Of a stretch of DNA of 32,000 nucleotides, positions 3,217 through 24,895 are shown piece by piece; positions within the stretch are counted from its first letter, which is position 1, and each line of letters begins with the position of its first letter. The stretch lies in NCBI GenBank assembly GCA_030649345.1, contig JAUSKK010000036.1:1-32000 (forward strand). Direction: 5' to 3'. The translations under genes were made by a program, and so were the position numbers. The notes under the pieces were generated by a model. It made no database searches. It saw nothing but the letters and a program-made list of their open reading frames with translations, and was not told the DNA's origin. Source of the stretch: Candidatus Iainarchaeum sp. GTDB lineage: Archaea > Iainarchaeota > Iainarchaeia > Iainarchaeales > 0-14-0-20-34-12.

Positions 3217-3337
3217 GCAGGAGTACCCAAGCGGCCAACGGGGCAGGACTTAAGTTCAAAGAATATTTACAAAGGAGAGAAGCGATAAGTGATCCTGTGG
3301 CTTAGTGCATTCGAAGGTTCGAATCCTTCCTCCTGCA
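3217..3337 (+). tRNA. tRNA-Leu(UAA) with a 37-nt intron at the canonical 37/38 position, no encoded CCA
   Basis: Acceptor stem GCAGGAG/CTCCTGC. Anticodon stem CAGGA(3244-3248)/TCCTG(3293-3297). Loop CTTAAG..A with anticodon TAA at 3251-3253. T arm GAAGG-TTCGAAT-CCTTC (3313-3329). Long variable arm and discriminator A3337. Confidence 0.85.
3255..3291 (+). other. tRNA intron with bulge-helix-bulge-like splice motif
   Basis: A 4-bp helix CTTA(3249-3252)/TAAG(3286-3289) is flanked by 3-nt bulges AGT (3253-3255) and TGA (3290-3292). Removing 37 nt leaves an 84-nt class II tRNA. Confidence 0.7.
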
Positions 3338-3341
3338 CAGC

Positions 3342-3369
3342 CTTTTTTCCTTACGGAAAAAAGCCTGGG
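3342..3369 (+). terminator. Hairpin with T-run directly after the tRNA
   Basis: CTTTTTTCC-ttac-GGAAAAAAG, a 9-bp stem. An oligo-T tract is consistent with an archaeal termination signal. Confidence 0.4.
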
Positions 3370-6514: not shown

Positions 6515-8557
6515 ATGAAATTTAAAATTGTATTTTTTGCAATTGCTCTAATTTTACTTTTAGGATGTACTCAGCCAAGTTCAGAAAATTCAACTCCCAG
6601 CGGACAAGCTGTTACTGGATTTGGAAATTCGTCCACAGTTCCAGTCATTAAAACCATTGTAATATACAATAACAATATAGGAGAAAGCTTACGCGATTTT
6701 ACCAGTCCTTTATGGCCAAAAACAGAAGACTGCTTAACACAAGCATGCATAGATGGAAGAACTACCAAACCAGACTTTAAATTTTTAGCAGGATTGCCTG
6801 CAAGCACGCCAGGATATGGTTATGCGAATGTACAATTCAATGGCTGGGCTAACAAAGGAGAAAGATTTACAACATTCACAGCAGGAGATGGAGTTAGTGC
6901 AACTTCTGGATCTGCTCAAGGAATTGTATACAAAGACGATGCAGGATTTGAACACAAAGTTCCGTTCTATTATACTTTGACTTCAATGTCTCAAGGCGGA
7001 AGTACATTCACTTTAGATGGTGCAACTTTCTATTACAAAGTAAGCACAGCTGATGTAAACTTTATTTTAACAGGAGATTTTGTATTAAACGGTTTTTCCG
7101 GGAATCTTACCAGAGATGGAAATCAAATTAGATTAAACACAGACAGAGGACCTTTGAATATCCCAAGTTATCCATACACAGTAAATGTAGATATTCGCAA
7201 AGTTAATTATACTTGTACAAGAATTGGAACTACATTTGCATTAAATTGCAATGCCGATGCAAACATGTCCATTACAACCAATGGAAGAACTTTCAGTCCA
7301 ACTCCAAGCTATGCAGACCTAATCACAGACGGAACCATTTACTTGGATGATGGAAACTTAATAAACAAAACAGGAATCTTTGGTGAAAGAAACAACATTA
7401 TTTGGATTACTTCAACAGTTGGAATGAATAATCAAATTTACGGTTATACACCTTACATTAATGAAACTCAAGGAAGAGTTTACCTGTTATTAGCACATCA
7501 AAATTTTATATCAACCGAAAACTCAAACTCTTACGGTTTTAGATTCTCAGGAACAGATACAGGAGAAGATGGAATCACTGATGTTGGGTTTTACTGGCTG
7601 GACAATATAGAATTACCTAAATTTGAAGGAAGTTCTACCAGTAACCGCCAAGATTACAACACAAATAGATCTCCACCCAGCGGAGATTCTTCCGATAATT
7701 ATAATTTCATTGCACAATTTGAAGTAGATACCGACAAAGACAGCATATACGATACAAAAATATACATAGACACAGCTACAGGAAAACCAATACAATTACC
7801 CAACACCAACTTAAGCACTTATACAGCAGATGTAAATTATAGAAAAGAAACTCAAAACTGGGGACTGTCTGCACGCACAGATATTCCGGTTTTACAAAAA
7901 GCATGGACTGATTACGGGAGCAAACTAGAAGTTACACCCAATCAATTCAAAGCCACAATTCCAGATAAGCGAAGAAAAATTGAATTCAAAGTATTGGGAA
8001 ATACAGGCACATCTGAAACTGCTTGGATTTACGATACCCAAAATTTAGATTCGCGCAATCAAAGAAGAGAATTGGTAAACAAAATTTTAAAGAAAGCACA
8101 ATTACCTTATTTAGTAGATCTAATAAAAACGCAGACTCATAATGGAAGTCCCTATAAAGAAAAAGTTACAGAAAGCATCAAACTAAACGGAGACGCATTA
8201 TTTGATTATGTTCGAACTATGATTGCAAATACAGTTACATCCATGCCTAGAATTAAAGATTTTTCTTACACAATCACATTCCAAAAAGGATTACCTATGG
8301 TCAATGATCCAACAACAGGAACACGCAGCGGAAGCTTTGTAGATGGAACTGATGATACCATCAGTGTTCCATTATTTGGCAAAAATTATACTTTAAAAGA
8401 AAGCAAACTCACACCAATACCAGAAATTACATTAATCGATGAATCTGGAAATACACTCAAATTAGTTCACGGACAAGCATTCCCTGCAAGCATGGATGTA
8501 AACGCAACCAATGATGCCAGCGATGACTATTGGAAAGTTGAACTCAATTTTAGATAA
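6515..8557 (+). CDS. Large secreted surface protein with lipobox-type signal peptide (S-layer/adhesin-like, function unknown)
   Basis: MKFKIVFFAIALILLLGC gives a signal peptide plus an LLGC lipobox. The 680-aa protein is rich in T/S/N/G, has many N-x-S/T sequons and has no further TM segment. Confidence 0.6.
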   Translation: MKFKIVFFAIALILLLGCTQPSSENSTPSGQAVTGFGNSSTVPVIKTIVIYNNNIGESLRDFTSPLWPKTEDCLTQACIDGRTTKPDFKFLAGLPASTPGYGYANVQFNGWANKGERFTTFTAGDGVSATSGSAQGIVYKDDAGFEHKVPFYYTLTSMSQGGSTFTLDGATFYYKVSTADVNFILTGDFVLNGFSGNLTRDGNQIRLNTDRGPLNIPSYPYTVNVDIRKVNYTCTRIGTTFALNCNADANMSITTNGRTFSPTPSYADLITDGTIYLDDGNLINKTGIFGERNNIIWITSTVGMNNQIYGYTPYINETQGRVYLLLAHQNFISTENSNSYGFRFSGTDTGEDGITDVGFYWLDNIELPKFEGSSTSNRQDYNTNRSPPSGDSSDNYNFIAQFEVDTDKDSIYDTKIYIDTATGKPIQLPNTNLSTYTADVNYRKETQNWGLSARTDIPVLQKAWTDYGSKLEVTPNQFKATIPDKRRKIEFKVLGNTGTSETAWIYDTQNLDSRNQRRELVNKILKKAQLPYLVDLIKTQTHNGSPYKEKVTESIKLNGDALFDYVRTMIANTVTSMPRIKDFSYTITFQKGLPMVNDPTTGTRSGSFVDGTDDTISVPLFGKNYTLKESKLTPIPEITLIDESGNTLKLVHGQAFPASMDVNATNDASDDYWKVELNFR

Positions 8558-10272: not shown

Positions 10273-10426
10273 TAGAAATTTAAGAGGCAAGGCACTATTT
10301 TTAAAGCTTTTGAAAGGCTAGTATTGTATACTGGTTTTATAGTCTACTTGCCGAAGGCAATTCGGAGGTATCGGAACCGAAGGTTCTGATTTAGACAGTA
10401 ACCGATGATAATTTGGAGGTTAGAAT

Positions 10427-11029: not shown

Positions 11030-11296
11030 ATGAATAATTGTTCATTTTGTGGAACTAACATTCAACAAGGTACTGGAATTATTTTTGTAAAAAGAACCGG
11101 AAAACGTTTTGATTTCTGTTCACGAAAATGTGAAAAAAATTTAATGAAATTAAATCGAAATCCAAGAAATTTCAAATGGACCCAAGAATACTGGAAAGAA
11201 AAAGGATTCCAGCAAGAAAAAGCAGGAAAAACTGAAACAGCTAAAAAAGAAGAAACTACAGAAAAGAAAGCTGTGAAACGAAAAAGAAAAAAGTAA
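11030..11296 (+). CDS. rpl24e: 50S ribosomal protein L24e
   Basis: CSFCGTNIQQGTGIIFVKRTGKRFDFCSRKCEKN zinc-ribbon N-terminus and a lysine-rich tail. Confidence 0.9.
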   Translation: MNNCSFCGTNIQQGTGIIFVKRTGKRFDFCSRKCEKNLMKLNRNPRNFKWTQEYWKEKGFQQEKAGKTETAKKEETTEKKAVKRKRKK

Positions 11297-11421
11297 ACAA
11301 TTCTGTGGTGCTGCAAGCACAATAAAACAAAATGTTTTATGTGCATCAAAATCAGCAGATTTTGATTGCACCACGTTCGACCAACCGGAACCCCGGTTGA
11401 AACGAAAGCGAAAAAAGTAAA
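11274..11421 (+). repeat. 24-nt direct repeat of the L24e 3' end (11274-11297 / 11398-11421, 22/24) bracketing a 100-nt multi-hairpin insert
   Basis: Read directly: TGAAACGAAAAAGAAAAAAGTAAA versus TGAAACGAAAGCGAAAAAAGTAAA. The insert stems are given in the findings. Confidence 0.8.
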
Positions 11422-11483
11422 ATAATTTAGTGGCACTGGCGCAGCAATGCAACAGTGTCACATACTATCAATCCGGTGATATT

Positions 11484-12401: not shown

Positions 12402-12506
12402 TATTGATTGCATACGGGTCAAGGCGCTGAGCCAACCAAAAGAAATATCCATTCAAAGTGCAGGATTACAGAATCCTAAAACTTTGAATAACTGTGTGTG
12501 AAAATT

Positions 12507-14252
12507 ATGATTCGACAACCGATTATTGTAGTCATGGGCCATATTGACCATGGAAAAACCAAATTATTGGACAGAATTCGCGGAACCACTATAGCTGAAA
12601 GAGAAGCTGGAGCGATTACGCAACATATTGGTGCTACTGAATTACCTGAAAATAAAATTCAAGCTATTTCTGGAAACTTATTAAAGCAATTTGGATTTCA
12701 ATTAGAAATTCCAGGCTTATTGTTTATTGATACGCCTGGGCATGATGCATTCACGAATTTAAGAAGACGCGGTGGAAGCATTGCCGATTTATCTATTTTA
12801 GTTGTAGACTGCATGCAAGGAATTCAACCGCAAACTTTGGAAGCCATTCAAATTTTGAAAACATTCAAAGTACCGTTTGTGGTAGCGTTTAATAAAATTG
12901 ACAAATTACAAAACTGGCAAAGCAAGACAGGTTCGTTTTTAGAAAATGAAAAAATTCAAACTACCCATGCCCAAGAATTATTGGATAAAAAAATCTATGA
13001 ATTGGTTGGAAGATTGTTTGAATTAGGATTTGAAGCAGAACGCTTTGATCGAATTCAAGATTTCCGAAAACAAATAGCTATTGTTCCTTTGTCGGCTGTG
13101 GTGGGAGAAGGAATTCCTGAATTGTTAATGATGCTGTCTGGTTTAAGTCAAAAGTTTTTGAAAAACAAATTGGAAATCGGAGAACAAGAAAAATGCAAAG
13201 GCACTGTCTTGGAAGTCAAAGAAGACAAAGGCCTAGGAACAACATTGGATGTAATTTTATACGAAGGATCTTTACGCGTAGGAGATATCATTGCTGTTGG
13301 AACCAAACAAGGAGTCACTGAAACCAAAATTCGTACTTTACTCAAACCCAAACCATTATCGGAAATACGGGATGAAAAAAATGTATTCAAATCAGTAGAA
13401 TCTGTAAGCGCGGCTTGCGGAGTAAAAATTTCCGCTCCAAACTTAGAAAATGTTTTAGCGGGTTCTCCAGTATTGGATGCCAGTGTGGAATCACGGCAAC
13501 AAATATTGGATGAAATTAAATCCATTAAAATTTCAACCGAAGATATTGGCTTAGTCATCAAAGCAGATACTTTAGGATCCTTGGAAGCATTGATTGGATT
13601 AATGAAAAACAATCAAATTCCAGTACGATCCGCAGATGTAGGAATGGTTACCAAAAAAGATGTCATGGAAGCTTTGGCTTCAAAAGAAAAAGATGTTTAC
13701 CATGGCTGTATTGTTGCATTCAATGTAGAAATTGATAAAACTGCAGAAGACGAAGCCAAAAAAAGAGAGATTCAATTATTTTCAGGAAAAGTAGTGTACA
13801 CCATTATTGATGAATATTCAAATTGGGTAAAAACTCAAAAAGATCAAATGAAAAAAAACAAGTCTACTTTCTTGATAAGTCCAGCAAAAATTGAAGTATT
13901 GCGAGGCTTTGTTTTTAGAAGATCCGATCCAGCCGTGGTTGGCGTAAAAGTATTGATTGGAAAAATTAAATCCAAAACAACATTGATTAATGAAAATACA
14001 ATGGTACGATTGCAGGGATTGCAGGAAGAAAAAAAGGCTGTTGAATCTGCAGAAAAAGGAAAAGAACTGGCAGCATCCTTAGAGAATGCAGTCATTGGCC
14101 GAAACTTGTTTGAAGGAGATATATTGTATACGTATATTCCAGAAAGCCAATTTGAAGAAATTCCAAAGTATTTGGAGCTAAATTCTGAAGAATTGGCCTT
14201 ACTGGAGGAAATAAAAAATGTTCAAATCAAACATAAAGAGAACGGAGGATAA
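12507..14252 (+). CDS. infB: Translation initiation factor aIF5B (IF-2 homologue)
   Basis: GHIDHGKTKLLD, DTPGH and NKID GTPase motifs; about 580 aa. GTG 12498 is an alternative start. Confidence 0.9.
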   Translation: MIRQPIIVVMGHIDHGKTKLLDRIRGTTIAEREAGAITQHIGATELPENKIQAISGNLLKQFGFQLEIPGLLFIDTPGHDAFTNLRRRGGSIADLSILVVDCMQGIQPQTLEAIQILKTFKVPFVVAFNKIDKLQNWQSKTGSFLENEKIQTTHAQELLDKKIYELVGRLFELGFEAERFDRIQDFRKQIAIVPLSAVVGEGIPELLMMLSGLSQKFLKNKLEIGEQEKCKGTVLEVKEDKGLGTTLDVILYEGSLRVGDIIAVGTKQGVTETKIRTLLKPKPLSEIRDEKNVFKSVESVSAACGVKISAPNLENVLAGSPVLDASVESRQQILDEIKSIKISTEDIGLVIKADTLGSLEALIGLMKNNQIPVRSADVGMVTKKDVMEALASKEKDVYHGCIVAFNVEIDKTAEDEAKKREIQLFSGKVVYTIIDEYSNWVKTQKDQMKKNKSTFLISPAKIEVLRGFVFRRSDPAVVGVKVLIGKIKSKTTLINENTMVRLQGLQEEKKAVESAEKGKELAASLENAVIGRNLFEGDILYTYIPESQFEEIPKYLELNSEELALLEEIKNVQIKHKENGG

Positions 14253-14255
14253 ATA

Positions 14256-14316
14256 AATGGTTCCAAAATTCGAAAGAATTTTGAAACTTTAAAAAACACG
14301 GAGGTTTTTTAATGGC
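14256..14316 (+). repeat. 61-nt module, copy A (84% identical to 24835-24895): inverted repeat + AAACTTTAAAAAA + G-rich box + TTTTTTAATG
   Basis: A by-eye alignment gives 51/61 identities. Inverted repeat CAAAATTC (14264-14271) / GAATTTTG (14276-14283). AATGG occurs at both ends (14256 and 14311). Confidence 0.8.
14288..14296 (+). promoter_or_regulatory. TATA-like TTTAAAAAA exactly 24 nt upstream of the S6e ATG
   Basis: The same 9-mer lies at the same 24-nt distance from the ATG at 17303 (spt4) and 24867 (dnaJ). Promoter function is not proven, because GGAGG between the box and the ATG could instead be an SD. Confidence 0.4.
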
Positions 14317-14813: not shown

Positions 14814-16037
14814 ATGGCTGGAAAAAAAGTAAAAACAGACAGCAGTGCACAATGCGTGCAAGCTGAAGTGAATATTGGTTTAGCCGGCCATGTAGATGCA
14901 GGAAAAACAACTTTAACTCAAGCATTGAGTGGAAAATGGACAGACACGCATAGTGAAGAATTAAAGCGCGGAATTTCAATACGATTGGGATATGCGGATA
15001 TTGGAATTTATAAATGCAGTAAATGCAAAGAATTTAATTATTCGAATACCAGTGAATGCCCACAGTGTAAATCTCCAGGTATTTTAGACCGCAAAGTTAG
15101 TTTTGTGGATGCGCCAGGGCATGAAACATTAATGACTACTATGTTAAGTGGAGCTGCACTTATGCAAGGCGCTTTGTTGGTAATTGCCGCCAATGAAACT
15201 TGCCCGCAAGCACAAACCATTGAACACTTGAATGCATTAATTATCAGCGGCATCGAGCAAGTCATTGTAGTGCAAAGCAAAGTAGATTTGGTCACCGAAG
15301 AACGAGCATTGGAAAGTCATAAAGAAATTAAAGAATTTTTGAAAGACACCCAATACAAAAACGCGCCCATTGTACCCATTGCAGCACATTTCAAAATCAA
15401 TATTGATATATTATTGGAAGAAATTCAAAAAAGTATTTCTTCGCCGAAATTTGATTCTACAAAACCATTGAAAATGTTTTGTGCACGATCTTTTGATATT
15501 AATAAACCAGGAACGCTTCCTTCAGAATTACATGGAAGTGTTTTAGGCGGAACCATTATTCAAGGAACCATCAAAAAAGGAGACACCATTGAATTAACTC
15601 CTTGGCTGGATGGAAAACAAATTCAAACCAAAGTTATTGAAATTCGAACCAGCGATGGAGTCTTAGAAGAAGCCAAGCCAGGCGGTTTAATTGCAATAGA
15701 AACTTTATTGGATCCAAGTTTAGCACAAAACGATCAGCTTAAAGGCCAAAACATTGGAGCTGTAGGAATATTCTCTGAACCTACCACAGTCTTGAAAATA
15801 GAAATGCATTTTTTGGATCGAGTTGTTGTCAGCAGTGCTAAACGAGTAGTGCAAGGAGATGACTTGGTTTTAACAGTTGGAACTGCAACTTTGTTGGGAA
15901 TTGTTTCCAGCGTAAAAGGAAATACTGTAGTTGTTGCTTTGAAGAAACCAGCCGTAGCTGAAAAAGAACAAAAACTTGCAGTCAGCAAACGAGACCAAAT
16001 GAAATGGAGATTAATTGCTTACGCAATCAATAAATAA
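14814..16037 (+). CDS. eif2g: Translation initiation factor aIF2 gamma subunit
   Basis: GHVDAGKTTL, the zinc-ribbon insert CSKCKE...CPQCKS, DAPGH and SKVD; 407 aa. Confidence 0.9.
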   Translation: MAGKKVKTDSSAQCVQAEVNIGLAGHVDAGKTTLTQALSGKWTDTHSEELKRGISIRLGYADIGIYKCSKCKEFNYSNTSECPQCKSPGILDRKVSFVDAPGHETLMTTMLSGAALMQGALLVIAANETCPQAQTIEHLNALIISGIEQVIVVQSKVDLVTEERALESHKEIKEFLKDTQYKNAPIVPIAAHFKINIDILLEEIQKSISSPKFDSTKPLKMFCARSFDINKPGTLPSELHGSVLGGTIIQGTIKKGDTIELTPWLDGKQIQTKVIEIRTSDGVLEEAKPGGLIAIETLLDPSLAQNDQLKGQNIGAVGIFSEPTTVLKIEMHFLDRVVVSSAKRVVQGDDLVLTVGTATLLGIVSSVKGNTVVVALKKPAVAEKEQKLAVSKRDQMKWRLIAYAINK

Positions 16038-16130
16038 TCAAAACTATCGAGGCAAAGCCGAAGATAGTTTAAAGTACCGCCGGCTTTCCGGCGAAACGGA
16101 GATTAATTGCTTACGCAATCAATAAATAAT
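16001..16130 (+). repeat. 38-nt direct repeat of the aIF2-gamma 3' end (16001-16038 / 16093-16130, 37/38) bracketing a 54-nt two-hairpin insert
   Basis: GAAA[T/C]GGAGATTAATTGCTTACGCAATCAATAAATAAT occurs twice with a 92-nt period. Confidence 0.85.
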
Positions 16131-16610
16131 ATGCAATCAATCAATAAAAAAATGAATATTAAAAATGAAAAAAAATTAAACAGTGCTGCTGAAGTGCAAC
16201 GAAAGCAGCACGTGCTACCAACCCGCACGCGGGTTGCAATTGACACAAATATGTTGTTAAGTGTCAGTCAATTAAAATTGGATATTTTTCAAGAAGTAGT
16301 CAACGAATTTGGAGAACAAAATTCTGAAATTGCAATCCCAGATAGGGTATTAAATGAATTAAAAAAATTGGCAGAAATTGAAAAAAACAAAGATGCCATT
16401 TTAGCTCAAGCCTGGTTAAACCAGAAAAAATTTAAAGTTTTGAAAGCCCAAAAGGCCGATAATGCAGATAAAGCCCTTTTAGAGCTTGCAAAACAAGGGT
16501 TTATCATAGCTACCAATGATAAAGTCTTACGAAAAAGTATAAAAAACGTTAATGGCAAGAGTATTTATATTAGAAAACGAAAAGTACTAGACTTTTCAGA
16601 AACATTCTAA
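16131..16610 (+). CDS. PIN-domain protein (conserved archaeal Fcf1/Utp24-like neighbour of aIF2-gamma and rpoE')
   Basis: VAIDTNMLL...IIATNDKVLRK are acidic PIN motifs. The track start, TTG 16107, lies inside the duplicated aIF2-gamma end. ATG 16131 or 16152 is more plausible. Confidence 0.75.
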   Translation: MQSINKKMNIKNEKKLNSAAEVQRKQHVLPTRTRVAIDTNMLLSVSQLKLDIFQEVVNEFGEQNSEIAIPDRVLNELKKLAEIEKNKDAILAQAWLNQKKFKVLKAQKADNADKALLELAKQGFIIATNDKVLRKSIKNVNGKSIYIRKRKVLDFSETF

Positions 16611-17258: not shown

Positions 17259-17262
17259 GGTG

Positions 17263-17330
17263 AATTTTAAATGAATTTAAAATTTAAAAAAAATTTTAAA
17301 ACTTTAAAAAACCGGGGGTTTTTTAAATGA
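17263..17330 (+). repeat. 10-nt direct repeat TTTTAAATGA (17265-17274 / 17321-17330) around a 46-nt AT-rich promoter-like insert at the spt4 start
   Basis: Exact repeat with a 56-nt period. Inverted repeat AATTTTAAA (17263-17271) / TTTAAAATT (17276-17284). AAACTTTAAAAAA at 17299-17311. Confidence 0.5.
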
Positions 17331-22636: not shown

Positions 22637-24523
22637 ATGAGTAAAGTAATTGGAATCGATTTAGGAACCAGTAATTCAGCAGCTGCAGTCTTGGAAGCAG
22701 GAAAACCAAAAATTATTCCAAGCGCAGAAGGAACTTCTTTATACGGAAAAGCATTTCCAAGTGTTGTGGCATTCACAAAAGATGACCAAGTTTTGGTGGG
22801 TGAACCGGCACGCAGACAAGCTGTCAGTAATCCAGATAAAACAATTATGGCAGCCAAGCGAAAAATGGGAACTACTTTCAAATACAAGATTGGCTCGAAA
22901 GAATTTACGCCTCAACAAATTAGTGCATTTATTTTACAGAAAATTAAAAAAGACGCAGAAGAATTTTTAGGCGAAAAAGTAGAAAAAGCTGTAATCACTG
23001 TGCCAGCTTATTTTGATGACAATCAAAGACAAGCAACCAAAGATGCAGGAGAAATTGCAGGCTTGGAAGTTATTCGAATTATTAATGAACCCACAGCTGC
23101 TGCTTTAGCCTATGGCTTAGATAAAAGCAATCAAGACATGAAAATTTTAGTATTCGATTTCGGCGGCGGAACATTGGATGTAACTGTAATGGAATTAGGC
23201 CATGGAGTCTTTGAAGTCAAATCAACCAGCGGAGACACTCAATTGGGCGGCACAGACATGGATAAAATTTTAGTGGATTATTTGGTGGCAGAATTCAAAA
23301 AAGAACAAGCTGTTGATTTAAGCAAAGACAGTGTAGCTATGCAGAGATTACGAGAAGCTGCAGAAAAAGCCAAAATTGAATTAAGTACAGTTTTGGATAC
23401 ACAAATTAATTTACCGTACATTACAGCTACTCCGGAAGGCCCGAAACATTTGGCCCTGAGTTTAACAAGATCAAAATTAGAACAATTGGTCGAGCCCTTA
23501 ATTCATAGATGCGAAAAACCAGTCCAGCAAGCTTTGGCGGATGCCAAAGTATCCCCGGGAGATGTAGCTAAAATTATTTTAGTCGGCGGACCAACCCGAA
23601 TGCCTGCAGTACAAAAGTTTGTGGAAAAAATTACAGGAGCCAAACCAGAACGAGGCATTGACCCAATGGAATGTGTAGCTATGGGTGCAGCCATTCAAGC
23701 CGGAGTTTTAGCTGGAGAAGTTAAAGATGTTTTATTATTGGACGTAACACCCCTAAGTTTAGGAATTGAAACCTTGGGTGGAGTGTTTACTCATTTAATT
23801 GAACGCAATACAACCATTCCAACCAAAAAAACTCAAATATTTAGCACAGCTGCAGACAACCAAAATGCAGTAGATATTCATATCCTGCAAGGAGAAAGAC
23901 CTATGGCAGTAGACAACAAAAGTTTGGGCAGATTTATTTTAGATGGAATTCCTCCAGCACCTCGCGGTGTTCCACAAGTTGAAGTCATGTACGATATTGA
24001 TGCCAACGGAATTTTGGATGTTAAAGCCAAAGATTTAGGCACAGGCAAAGAAAAAAGCATCAAAATTGTTTCTCCGCAAAAATTGGATAAAGAAGAAATT
24101 GAGCGAATGAAGCAGGAAGCGGAAAAGTTTGCAGAAGCGGATCAAAAGAAAAAAGAAGAGATTGAAACTTTGAATATGGCAGACAACACAGTTTATGGGA
24201 CTGAAAAGGTGTTGAAAGAATTGAGCGGGAAAATTTCTGCAGAACAAGAAACAGAAATTAAAGAAAAAAATGAAACATTAAGAAAATTAGTAAACGAGCC
24301 AACCAAAGATGTTGCAAAAATTAAAACAGCTTTAGATGACTTGAATGCATTCGTGCAAAAAATCAGTACAGAAATGTATCAAAAAGCCGGAGAACAATAC
24401 CAGCAACAAAATCAAGGAGAACAAGGAAATCCCGGACAAGAAGAAGAACACAAGCACAAAAAGAAAAACAAAGACGGAAAAGTGGTTGACGCGGAGTTTA
24501 AGGAAGACGAAAGCAAACAATAG
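22637..24523 (+). CDS. dnaK: Chaperone DnaK (Hsp70)
   Basis: [23 protein letters not shown] and [10 protein letters not shown]; 628 aa. Confidence 0.95.
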
Positions 24524-24659
24524 TGCTGAACGCAGTGAAGCACTACGACCTACCAACCGCGCGATTAAAACGCAGCGTTTTAATGCGCATTTAAACAAAA
24601 GTTTAAATCGCGTCCGCGGTTGACGCGGAGTTTAAGGAAGACGAGAGCAAACAATAGTG
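24484..24659 (+). repeat. 42-nt direct repeat of the dnaK 3' end (24484-24525 / 24618-24659, 41/42) bracketing a 92-nt GC-rich multi-hairpin insert
   Basis: GGTTGACGCGGAGTTTAAGGAAGACGA[A/G]AGCAAACAATAGTG occurs twice with a 134-nt period. Confidence 0.9.
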
Positions 24660-24817: not shown

Positions 24818-24834
24818 TTAATCAGGTAGAAATC

Positions 24835-24895
24835 AATGGTTCCAAAATTCTTTTGAATTTTGAAACTTTAAAAAATAAAGGAATTTTTTAATGGC
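24835..24895 (+). repeat. 61-nt module, copy B (see 14256-14316) directly upstream of and including the dnaJ start
   Basis: Inverted repeat CAAAATTC (24843-24850) / GAATTTTG (24855-24862). TTTAAAAAA at 24867-24875. AATGG at 24835 and 24890. Confidence 0.8.

Follow-up and report, generated by a model that had tools for sequence, protein, structure and literature searches.

Small double-hairpin elements flanked by duplicated gene ends in a translation gene cluster of Iainarchaeota

The closest analogues of the elements described here are found in organelles. Double-hairpin and other repetitive hairpin-forming elements and the GC clusters of fungal and sponge mitochondria are short, richer in G+C than the compact, A+T-rich genomes that carry them, mostly intergenic and sometimes located inside genes at tolerant positions; they are presumed to be mobile, and the enzyme that moves them is not known (PMC10085805, PMC2800124). 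The double-hairpin elements of Allomyces have been reported without duplications at their flanks, and an RNA intermediate was proposed for this reason (PMC2800124). The Iainarchaeota elements resemble them most in layout and lifestyle, with adjacent hairpins, G+C-rich stems and an intergenic dispersal, but they are archaeal rather than organellar and have no sequence relation to the organellar ones; unlike the Allomyces elements, they are flanked by direct target duplications of 29 to 42 bp in five of seven insertions.

Miniature inverted-repeat transposable elements, or MITEs, have as their defining features terminal inverted repeats and short target duplications, and they can reshape gene ends and expression (PMC10969869). 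In Pyrobaculum, sRNA genes of the C/D box type and a MITE-like family, with C/D boxes and flanking inverted repeats, proliferate, abut or overlap the 3' ends of genes and sometimes provide the stop codon (PMC6009581). The present elements are likewise small, non-coding and multi-copy, but they have neither inverted repeats nor a short, fixed duplication; one of them, in the genome L014, provides the stop codon of L24e as the Pyrobaculum sRNA genes sometimes do, but it and its relatives carry no C/D boxes and have no Rfam matches. Among bacterial repeats, the REP/BIME (REPIN) hairpins lie after stop codons in operons, share a conserved GTAG head and are partnered by a RAYT gene, and the Rickettsia palindromic elements are inserted in frame in coding regions. 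Neither class, to our knowledge, duplicates tens of bases of its target, and the only well-known duplicators of about 28 to 40 bp that we can name are Cas1-Cas2 spacer integration and target-primed retroelements, e.g., the Penelope-like ones, in addition to the IS1634 group. Penelope-type target-primed retroposons are eukaryotic. CRISPR loci array unrelated spacers beside cas genes, whereas the inserts described here are homologous single units with no cas genes in the window. The searchable literature holds no description of such elements in Iainarchaeota, which is absence of evidence only.

The window (the whole stretch of DNA that was analysed, 32,000 nt with a G+C content of 35%) carries a conserved archaeal ribosomal-protein and translation cluster, including L7Ae, S28e, L24e, NDK, dUTPase, aIF5B, S6e, aIF2-gamma, a PIN protein, RpoE, Spt4 and others, followed by GrpE, DnaK and DnaJ. 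The nearest species representatives share only 58% identity in aIF2-gamma. Genomes of Iainarchaeota (DPANN) rank among the most compact known. The gene junctions that are hit by the insertions normally abut or overlap, and the L24e/NDK and aIF2-gamma/PIN pairs are overlapping in a relative with 64% identity. Four to five copies of the elements, all non-coding and 45 to 100 nt long, lie in the window, which encodes no transposase, reverse transcriptase, Cas1 or HUH protein and contains no integrase, cargo remnants or cas genes.

Three of the inserts, located behind L24e, aIF2-gamma and dnaK, are each bracketed by a near-identical direct repeat of the 3' end of the upstream gene, stop codon included (Table 1). 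The window has no other direct repeats that are 22 nt or longer and lie within 400 nt. In 200 block-wise dinucleotide shuffles, such repeats number 0.03 per window on average, and no shuffle reaches three. By the duplication, the upstream gene keeps its own end and stop codon, and the downstream gene keeps its original upstream sequence.

Table 1. Positions of the elements and of the duplicated gene ends in the window
Feature	Positions	Strand	Content or basis
D1(L24e), first target copy	11274..11308	+	last 7 L24e codons, stop TAA 11294-11296, 12 nt beyond
L24e insert, subfamily 2	11309..11397	+	89 nt between duplicates; without counterpart in relative L284
AT-rich hairpin pair nested in stem A loop, L24e insert	11317..11366	+	fold
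D2(L24e), second copy of L24e 3' end, non-coding	11398..11433	+	repeat comparison
Second insertion relative to L284, ~46 nt: hairpin GTGGCACTG..CAGTGTCAC plus tail	11430..11475	+	fold, comparison with L284
D1(aIF2-gamma)	16001..16038	+	last 12 codons, stop TAA 16035-16037, 1 nt
aIF2-gamma insert, subfamily 1, 54 nt	16039..16092	+	fold; missing from relative L285
D2(aIF2-gamma)	16093..16130	+	ends right before probable PIN start ATG 16131
Bare subfamily-2 core	16183..16236	+	in frame in N-terminal coding region of PIN gene; pattern search, alignment
D1(dnaK)	24484..24525	+	last 12 codons, stop TAG 24521-24523, 2 nt
dnaK insert, subfamily 2, 92 nt between duplicates	24526..24617	+	fold, core alignment
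AT-rich hairpin pair nested in stem B loop, dnaK insert	24562..24611	+	fold
D2(dnaK), non-coding second copy of dnaK 3' end	24618..24659	+	repeat comparison

At the L24e/NDK junction, the element proper (about 11305 to 11399) consists of stem A (GTGGTGC/GCACCAC), a linker and stem B (CAACCGG/CCGGTTG), and the predicted fold of the insert is far more stable than expected (z = -6.8; 0 of 200 shuffles equally stable). The two target copies are identical at 30 of 35/36 positions, for a duplication length of 35 nt, and include two in-frame synonymous changes (AAA AGA versus AAG CGA). The L24e-NDK spacer measures 187 nt in the window against 15 nt in the relative L284 (NDK 80% identical, run SRR14366766), whose junction lacks the 89-nt insert, the duplicate and the 46-nt hairpin; about 40 related loci have a median spacing of 9.5 nt here, with the window at the maximum. 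The join between L24e and the insert is reproduced by an independent k=31 assembly (run SRR13727527), which then breaks at the repeat, as would be anticipated. The second insertion at this junction has no long duplication, just GTG repeated at both edges, and its hairpin may be an eroded member of the family, its sequence similarity to the other copies being not significant.

The aIF2-gamma insert has the stem A arrangement AAACTATC-GA-[GGCAAAGCC]-GAA-GATAGTTT and a stem B of CGCCGG/CCGGCG. Its flanking copies agree at 37 of the 38 duplicated nucleotides, and the difference is non-synonymous (TGG to CGG). In the relative L285, which has a near-identical aIF2-gamma C terminus, the aIF2-gamma stop codon is followed by GGG and then by the PIN ATG, without insert and duplicate and also without the bare core that the window carries within the PIN gene; the distance between the two genes has a median of 4 nt across about 40 related loci, of which the 195 nt of the window are the maximum. 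The bare core is laid out as GTGCTGCT-GAA-[GTGCAAC]-GAA-AGCAGCAC, with the linker GTGCTAC and a second hairpin CAACCCG-CACG-CGGGTTG. Compared with L285, the 45 nt from about 16183 to 16227 are extra, and a long duplication is absent. The PIN gene of the window has an in-frame addition of 45 to 54 nt in its N-terminal coding part, i.e., 15 to 18 added residues. Every PIN homolog found covers 82 to 86% of the window protein, the core-encoded N-terminal stretch is missing from all of them, and the Pfam PIN domain begins directly after this stretch, an in-frame insertion that resembles those of the Rickettsia palindromic elements.

At dnaK, the element proper (about 24523 to 24622) is composed of stem A (A)GTGCT/AGCAC(T) and stem B CAACCGCG/CGCGGTTG, and its insert also folds more stably than shuffled sequence (z = -5.0; 0 of 200 shuffles equally stable). 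The flanking copies match at 41 of 42 positions of a 42-nt duplication. Empty orthologous junctions are known for the L24e/NDK and aIF2-gamma/PIN sites, not for dnaK.

The earlier note on this DNA, in which the duplications at the inserts went unnoticed, had proposed from alignment by eye that the L24e and dnaK inserts are homologous, modular members of a mobile family. The proposal is backed by the duplications at three sites, by empty and reciprocally occupied sites and by compensatory changes, and most of its particulars agree with our comparison: segments 11368-11388 and 24540-24560 match at 16 of 21 positions, both inserts contain GTGCTG[C/A]A at the 5' end, and the folds place the AT-rich hairpin pair in stem A of the L24e copy and in stem B of the dnaK copy. 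With these modules removed, the L24e/dnaK core alignment scores 24 against 12.2±2.2 in shuffled controls (reached in 2 of 1000). The local alignments with the bare core score 29 for L24e (dinucleotide shuffles 14.4±2.3) and 26 for dnaK (14.2±2.2), and neither score is reached in 1000 shuffles. The twin AT-rich hairpins are present in both inserts as described, but the sequence kinship of the two modules is suggestive only, with the global score reached in 35 of 2000 shuffles and the local score in 23 to 66 shuffles per 500 to 1000 (about 5%); their comparison with free-standing AT-rich hairpins upstream of S6e, dnaJ and Spt4 is not significant, with one borderline pair.

Three further suggestions of that note fared differently. 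The aIF2-gamma insert, which had been taken for the bare core, has no significant similarity to the L24e, dnaK or PIN core, and the true bare core is the PIN copy, since it has no nested module. The GCATACG...CCAACC stretch in the dut/aIF5B spacer (12410-12437) does not fold (z = +0.5) and is missed by the core HMM, and we treat it as a chance resemblance. Copies do not always sit at stop codons, as the in-frame copy inside the 5' coding region of the PIN gene demonstrates.

The copies fall into two sequence families of small (45 to 113 nt) non-coding double-hairpin elements, sometimes with a second pair nested in a loop. Subfamily 2 (GTGCTG...ACCAACC...GGTTG) is represented in the window by the L24e and dnaK copies and the one at the PIN 5' end; subfamily 1 (..ATCGA-hairpin-GAAGAT..) is represented by the aIF2-gamma insert in the window and by copies in two other Iainarchaeota genomes. 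The aIF2-gamma insert shares the two-hairpin layout with subfamily 2 but belongs to the separate sequence family; because the layout is common and the sequence similarity is not significant, we only infer that the two subfamilies are one family. As single strands, the L24e and dnaK inserts have a stem A of 7 to 8 bp, a linker of 7 to 9 nt and a stem B with the base CAACC/GGTTG, and in the predicted folds the insert boundaries coincide with the bases of two separate hairpins; in archaeal bulge-helix-bulge introns, both boundaries are found in 3-nt bulges on either side of a 4-bp helix. The stems are G+C-rich compared with the 35% G+C of the window, and stem A of several copies contains a recurring GA/GAA internal loop and a small apical hairpin.

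When the copies are aligned by stem position, the pairs G-C, T-A and G-C at the base of stem A are kept in six of seven copies, and positions 4 to 8 swap Watson-Crick pairs (e.g., T-A/C-G, G-C/A-T and C-G/T-A). In stem B of subfamily 2, CAACC/GGTTG is kept and C-G is exchanged for G-C at positions 6 and 7. Compensatory pair changes in both stems thus indicate, at the level of sequence comparison, an element structure under constraint. The few non-standard stem pairs include G-T on the given strand, which mildly favours the view that it is coding-strand RNA or top-strand DNA that folds. Every copy lies in sense orientation on the coding strand; this says little, because nearly all genes here are co-oriented. 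Terminal inverted repeats are absent: when the 25 nt at one end of each element are compared with the 25 nt at the other, the best inverted match spans 4 to 7 nt. Rfam searches returned nothing at the gathering score for the whole window and only chance-level matches at E<=10 for each insert region. A tRNA-like origin was rejected, as ARAGORN found nothing and the fold is not a cloverleaf. Two readings of the internal loop of stem A failed as well: the register needed for a kink-turn, checked by hand on the sequence, breaks the outer helix, and a hammerhead-like GA-hairpin-GAA arrangement misses the CUGAUGA box and has no Rfam match.

To look for further copies, about 2 Mb of related archaeal loci were screened for stop-spanning repeats that enclose a structured insert, which gave two clear cases, L014 (JAUWWX010000043) and L090 (Ga0265296_1002149). 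In L014, the L24e/NDK junction contains an insert of 86 nt between copies that agree at 29/29 positions, and L24e now ends at a stop codon that the insert provides. In L090, the NDK/dut junction contains an insert of 113 nt, and the flanking copies agree at 27/29 positions; the GTG start of dut, which used to overlap the stop of NDK, reads ATG in the second copy. The two inserts are homologous (score 36 versus 15.3±2.5, z=8.2) and have in common the stem A GTGSCATCGA-hairpin-GAAGATGGCAC and the 3' end GWGACGGC; the ATCGA-hairpin-GAAGAT core is common to the aIF2-gamma insert of the window as well (z=2.7; shared with L014). Where one of the two genomes has its insert, the other is collinear and has the junction in single copy. 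The 5' leader is 27 nt in L014 and 18 nt in L090, both A-rich and with tandem stop codons, compared with 4 nt in the window copy, and a donor-flank search for these A-rich leaders found nothing in the DNA examined. In the L090 insert, the second stem also encloses a nested hairpin pair; together with the nested pairs of the L24e and dnaK inserts, this makes a double hairpin budded in a loop a recurring trait, which fits nested insertion.

Profile and pattern searches added no copies to these. Among about 160 related archaeal loci (about 2 Mb), no additional members matched an nhmmer profile of the subfamily-2 core, and a hand-written descriptor of the GA/GAA loop of stem A gave 18 matches versus 6 to 11 in shuffles, of which only those of L014 and the window are real. 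Matches to the subfamily-1 stem A pattern on viral contigs are partial and attributable to chance, none with the full hairpin, and a viral origin was discarded. The long L24e-NDK spacer of L008 contains an internal 36-nt repeat; a reading of this spacer as repeated L24e ends is not significant (97 of 500 shuffles). A duplicate at the S28e end in L011 has the look of an old tandem duplication, not of an insertion.

The insertions seen amount to seven in three genomes, and those without a long duplication are the PIN copy and the insertion at 11430-11475, with none or only 3 nt. Orthologous sites are empty in L284 and L285, at about 80% protein identity, and reciprocally filled and empty in L014 and L090; the near-identity of the duplicates speaks for recent events. 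We conclude that related hairpin elements have been inserted recently and independently, and that they are very probably mobile and duplicate their target. As a whole, the best explanation, to which we give a probability of roughly 0.6, is that of mobile double-hairpin elements in two sequence families, which duplicate their target and enter it by a copy-type insertion whose mechanism we infer.

Several other explanations share parts of this pattern. The elements would be classical MITEs if they were deletion derivatives of insertion sequences, moved in trans by a transposase with a fixed, unusually long stagger. Their small size, non-coding nature, multiple copies and direct-repeat flanks suit such an origin, as do the subfamily-1 duplications, which are clean, free of microhomology and exactly 29 nt in both L014 and L090. 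It is nevertheless unlikely, given that terminal inverted repeats are missing, that duplication lengths vary (29, 29, 35, 38 and 42 nt) with two insertions showing none, and that neither a parent element nor a transposase is present within the window. Duplications by prokaryotic insertion sequences and MITEs are mostly 2 to 14 bp, with the IS1634 group as a long and variable exception. More improbable still is a functional RNA (a processing site, stabiliser, protein-binding site or internal promoter) that is kept by selection and to which the duplications are incidental. The elements are missing from the same junctions in relatives with about 80% identity, different junctions are occupied in different genomes, no Rfam match appears even at E<=10, and the near-identical duplicates reflect recent events rather than an old conserved design. 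Such a function would account for the stable hairpins, the compensatory changes, the recurring GA/GAA loop of stem A with its apical hairpin and the sense orientation of all copies inside operons, and TATA-like strings (TTTAAA and TTTTAT) occur in the nested AT-rich modules and could be read as promoters.

The duplication of 30 to 50 bp of a gene 3' end resembles attL/attR pairs, and the two differences between the L24e copies are synonymous, as might be expected from scars of site-specific integration, left by an integrase-borne element that carried a gene 3' end and was later deleted to about 100 nt, or from a homing-type end replacement. We consider this very improbable: there are five different targets, each of them duplicated, although the inserts themselves are tiny and homologous, so that a separate att site would be needed per target; the aIF2-gamma copies differ non-synonymously, and the window is devoid of integrase or cargo remnants. 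An artefact of short-read metagenome assembly is scarcely credible. The source is indeed a metagenome-assembled genome, and the independent k=31 assembly breaks exactly at the repeats, but the Logan contig reproduces the join of L24e end to insert up to the repeat, the duplicates at each site differ by 1 to 5 bases and are therefore distinct loci, and the same architecture occurs in two unrelated assemblies, L014 and L090. The order of gene 3' end, hairpin and second copy is superficially that of a diversity-generating retroelement, with the gene-end copy as variable repeat and the downstream copy as template repeat. The chance of this is close to nil, as the mismatch pattern already refutes it: the mismatches (T/C, C/T, G/A) are not confined to adenine, the repeats of 29 to 42 nt lie in housekeeping genes, and the window has no reverse transcriptase.

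For the mobile, target-duplicating elements that we prefer, the duplication would arise at insertion, when a copy of the element is joined to target strands opened 3 to 4 helical turns apart and the gaps are filled in. A classical cut-and-paste DDE transposase is disfavoured, and a copy-type route favoured, because the duplications range from 0-3 to 29-42 bp, inverted repeats are absent, the 5' leader is variable, the 3' end looks defined and the subfamily-2 junctions contain short homologies. In such a route, a hairpin-bounded RNA or single-stranded copy might prime, or be primed, at a nick in a target-primed, SINE-like manner; alternatively, replication might switch template at the hairpins. 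Where subfamily-2 elements meet their targets, the element ends (GTG... and ...GGTTG) overlap in sequence with the target by 3 + 5 nt at dnaK and 4 + 2 nt at L24e, and at the PIN copy the 3' arm of stem B is native Arg-Val-Ala coding sequence. Short coincidences of this kind are typical of annealing-dependent joining. The subfamily-1 junctions have no microhomology and thus fit template switching poorly, and the absence of a poly-A or other tail makes a poor fit to a retroposon. A target-primed or RNA-mediated route is put forward only tentatively, template switching is no less tentative, and a dedicated DNA integrase with widely spaced cuts, though rather doubtful, is a serious rival to the copy-type route.

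In a compact genome, only those insertions would survive whose duplication spans a gene junction or whose site is tolerant, for instance a spacer or a variable N terminus. Such a survival filter would explain the stop codons inside the duplicates, and targeting would not be needed. It is conceivable, if somewhat doubtful, that these are undescribed archaeal elements, hairpin-bounded and protein-less, which use an RNA or single-stranded intermediate and widely staggered nicks in a SINE-like or copy-choice manner. If so, the target duplications of 0 to about 40 bp and the missing inverted repeats would be explained, and DPANN archaea would have a recurrent way to part overlapping genes, to lengthen proteins and possibly to gain promoters.

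Small non-autonomous hairpin elements as such are already known, and the notable part is the duplication of the gene ends. We know of no prokaryotic transposition scheme that fits a duplication of 29 to 42 bp without inverted repeats, and this misfit points to an uncharacterised insertion route; perhaps, although the odds are against it, the gene-end duplication reflects an archaeal insertion mechanism that has not been described. Selfish elements that settle at abutting or overlapping junctions, duplicate the gene end and leave both neighbours intact illustrate how a streamlined genome can tolerate mobile DNA. The elements are also the reason why short-k assemblies break at these loci, and they are practical markers of recent strain divergence. 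Gene products are altered as well, as seen in the new L24e stop codon of L014 and in the residues added to the PIN protein of the window.

The AT-rich hairpin modules that stand free of the inserts, directly upstream of S6e, dnaJ, and Spt4, are clearly homologous to one another and follow a common pattern (..GGTTCCAAAATTC-N4-GAATTTTGAAACTTTAAAAAAY-loop with GGAGG/AGGA-RTTTTTTAATG), within which a compensatory C-G/T-A change is found. They look like a common cassette combining a promoter/TATA element with a ribosome-binding site, and they show no significant similarity to the AT-rich hairpin pairs nested in the stem loops of the L24e and dnaK inserts.

Features of the window and of the compared contigs
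Feature	Coordinates	Strand	Remark
AT-rich hairpin module	14250-14314	+	directly 5' of S6e start codon
AT-rich hairpin module	17259-17329	+	directly 5' of Spt4 start codon
AT-rich hairpin module	24829-24893	+	directly 5' of dnaJ start codon
tRNA gene	3217-3337	+	Rfam tRNA match, 42 bits (region searched alone)
Perfect 9-bp hairpin	3342-3363	+	3' of tRNA gene
680-aa ORF	6515-8557	+	between TrmB-like regulator and Glu/Gln-tRNA synthetase genes
Two small GAAG-loop hairpins	10380-10420	+	L7Ae 5' leader
174-nt L24e-NDK spacer	L008:1844-2017		another Iainarchaeum contig
Two terminator-like hairpins (AAGCCTTGCCGAAGGCT)	L011:1600-1800
Repeat of S28e 3' end	L011:6419-6541		spaced 93 nt

Directly 3' of the second aIF2-gamma copy lies a third, partial copy of the last 18 to 20 nt of the duplicate (16112-16152, + strand; TACGCAATCAATAAATAAT / TATGCAATCAATCAATAAA), which overlaps the probable start of the PIN gene at 16131. 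The NCBI annotation places this start at 16152, but read from 16131 the PIN N terminus aligns with that of the relative. In L090, the contig with an insert at its NDK/dut junction, the dut start previously overlapped the NDK stop as GTGA; the second of the two NDK-end copies (L090:7056-7090) has an ATG there instead, suggesting that the downstream gene adapted once it was uncoupled from NDK. Separately, palindromic repeats of the CTACGTAGGTACGTAG type are densely clustered 3' of the aIF2-gamma/PIN genes on a contig from Hadarchaeota (L035:12250-12720).

Within the L008 spacer lies a 36-nt direct repeat that is significant (GGCAAAGCCAAAGCGAAAAGGCACG..GGCAATGC), along with GGCAAAGCC mini-hairpins similar to the one in the aIF2-gamma insert of the window; the spacer may record an older counterpart of the window's insertion events. 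In L011, the terminator-like hairpins bracket another pair of hairpins, of which one has the stem CAAACC...GGTTTG, and the repeated S28e end looks like an old tandem duplication.

The tRNA gene has a long variable arm and an anticodon-loop insertion of about 40 nt and probably encodes an intron-containing tRNA-Leu(UAA); neither ARAGORN nor an Rfam scan of the whole window picked it up. The L7Ae leader also holds CTGA...GATGA strings, which together with its hairpins recall a kink-turn autoregulatory site, and has no Rfam match. The 680-aa ORF, which has no Pfam match, is a lineage-specific addition, because its two flanking genes directly adjoin in L163, a 64% relative.
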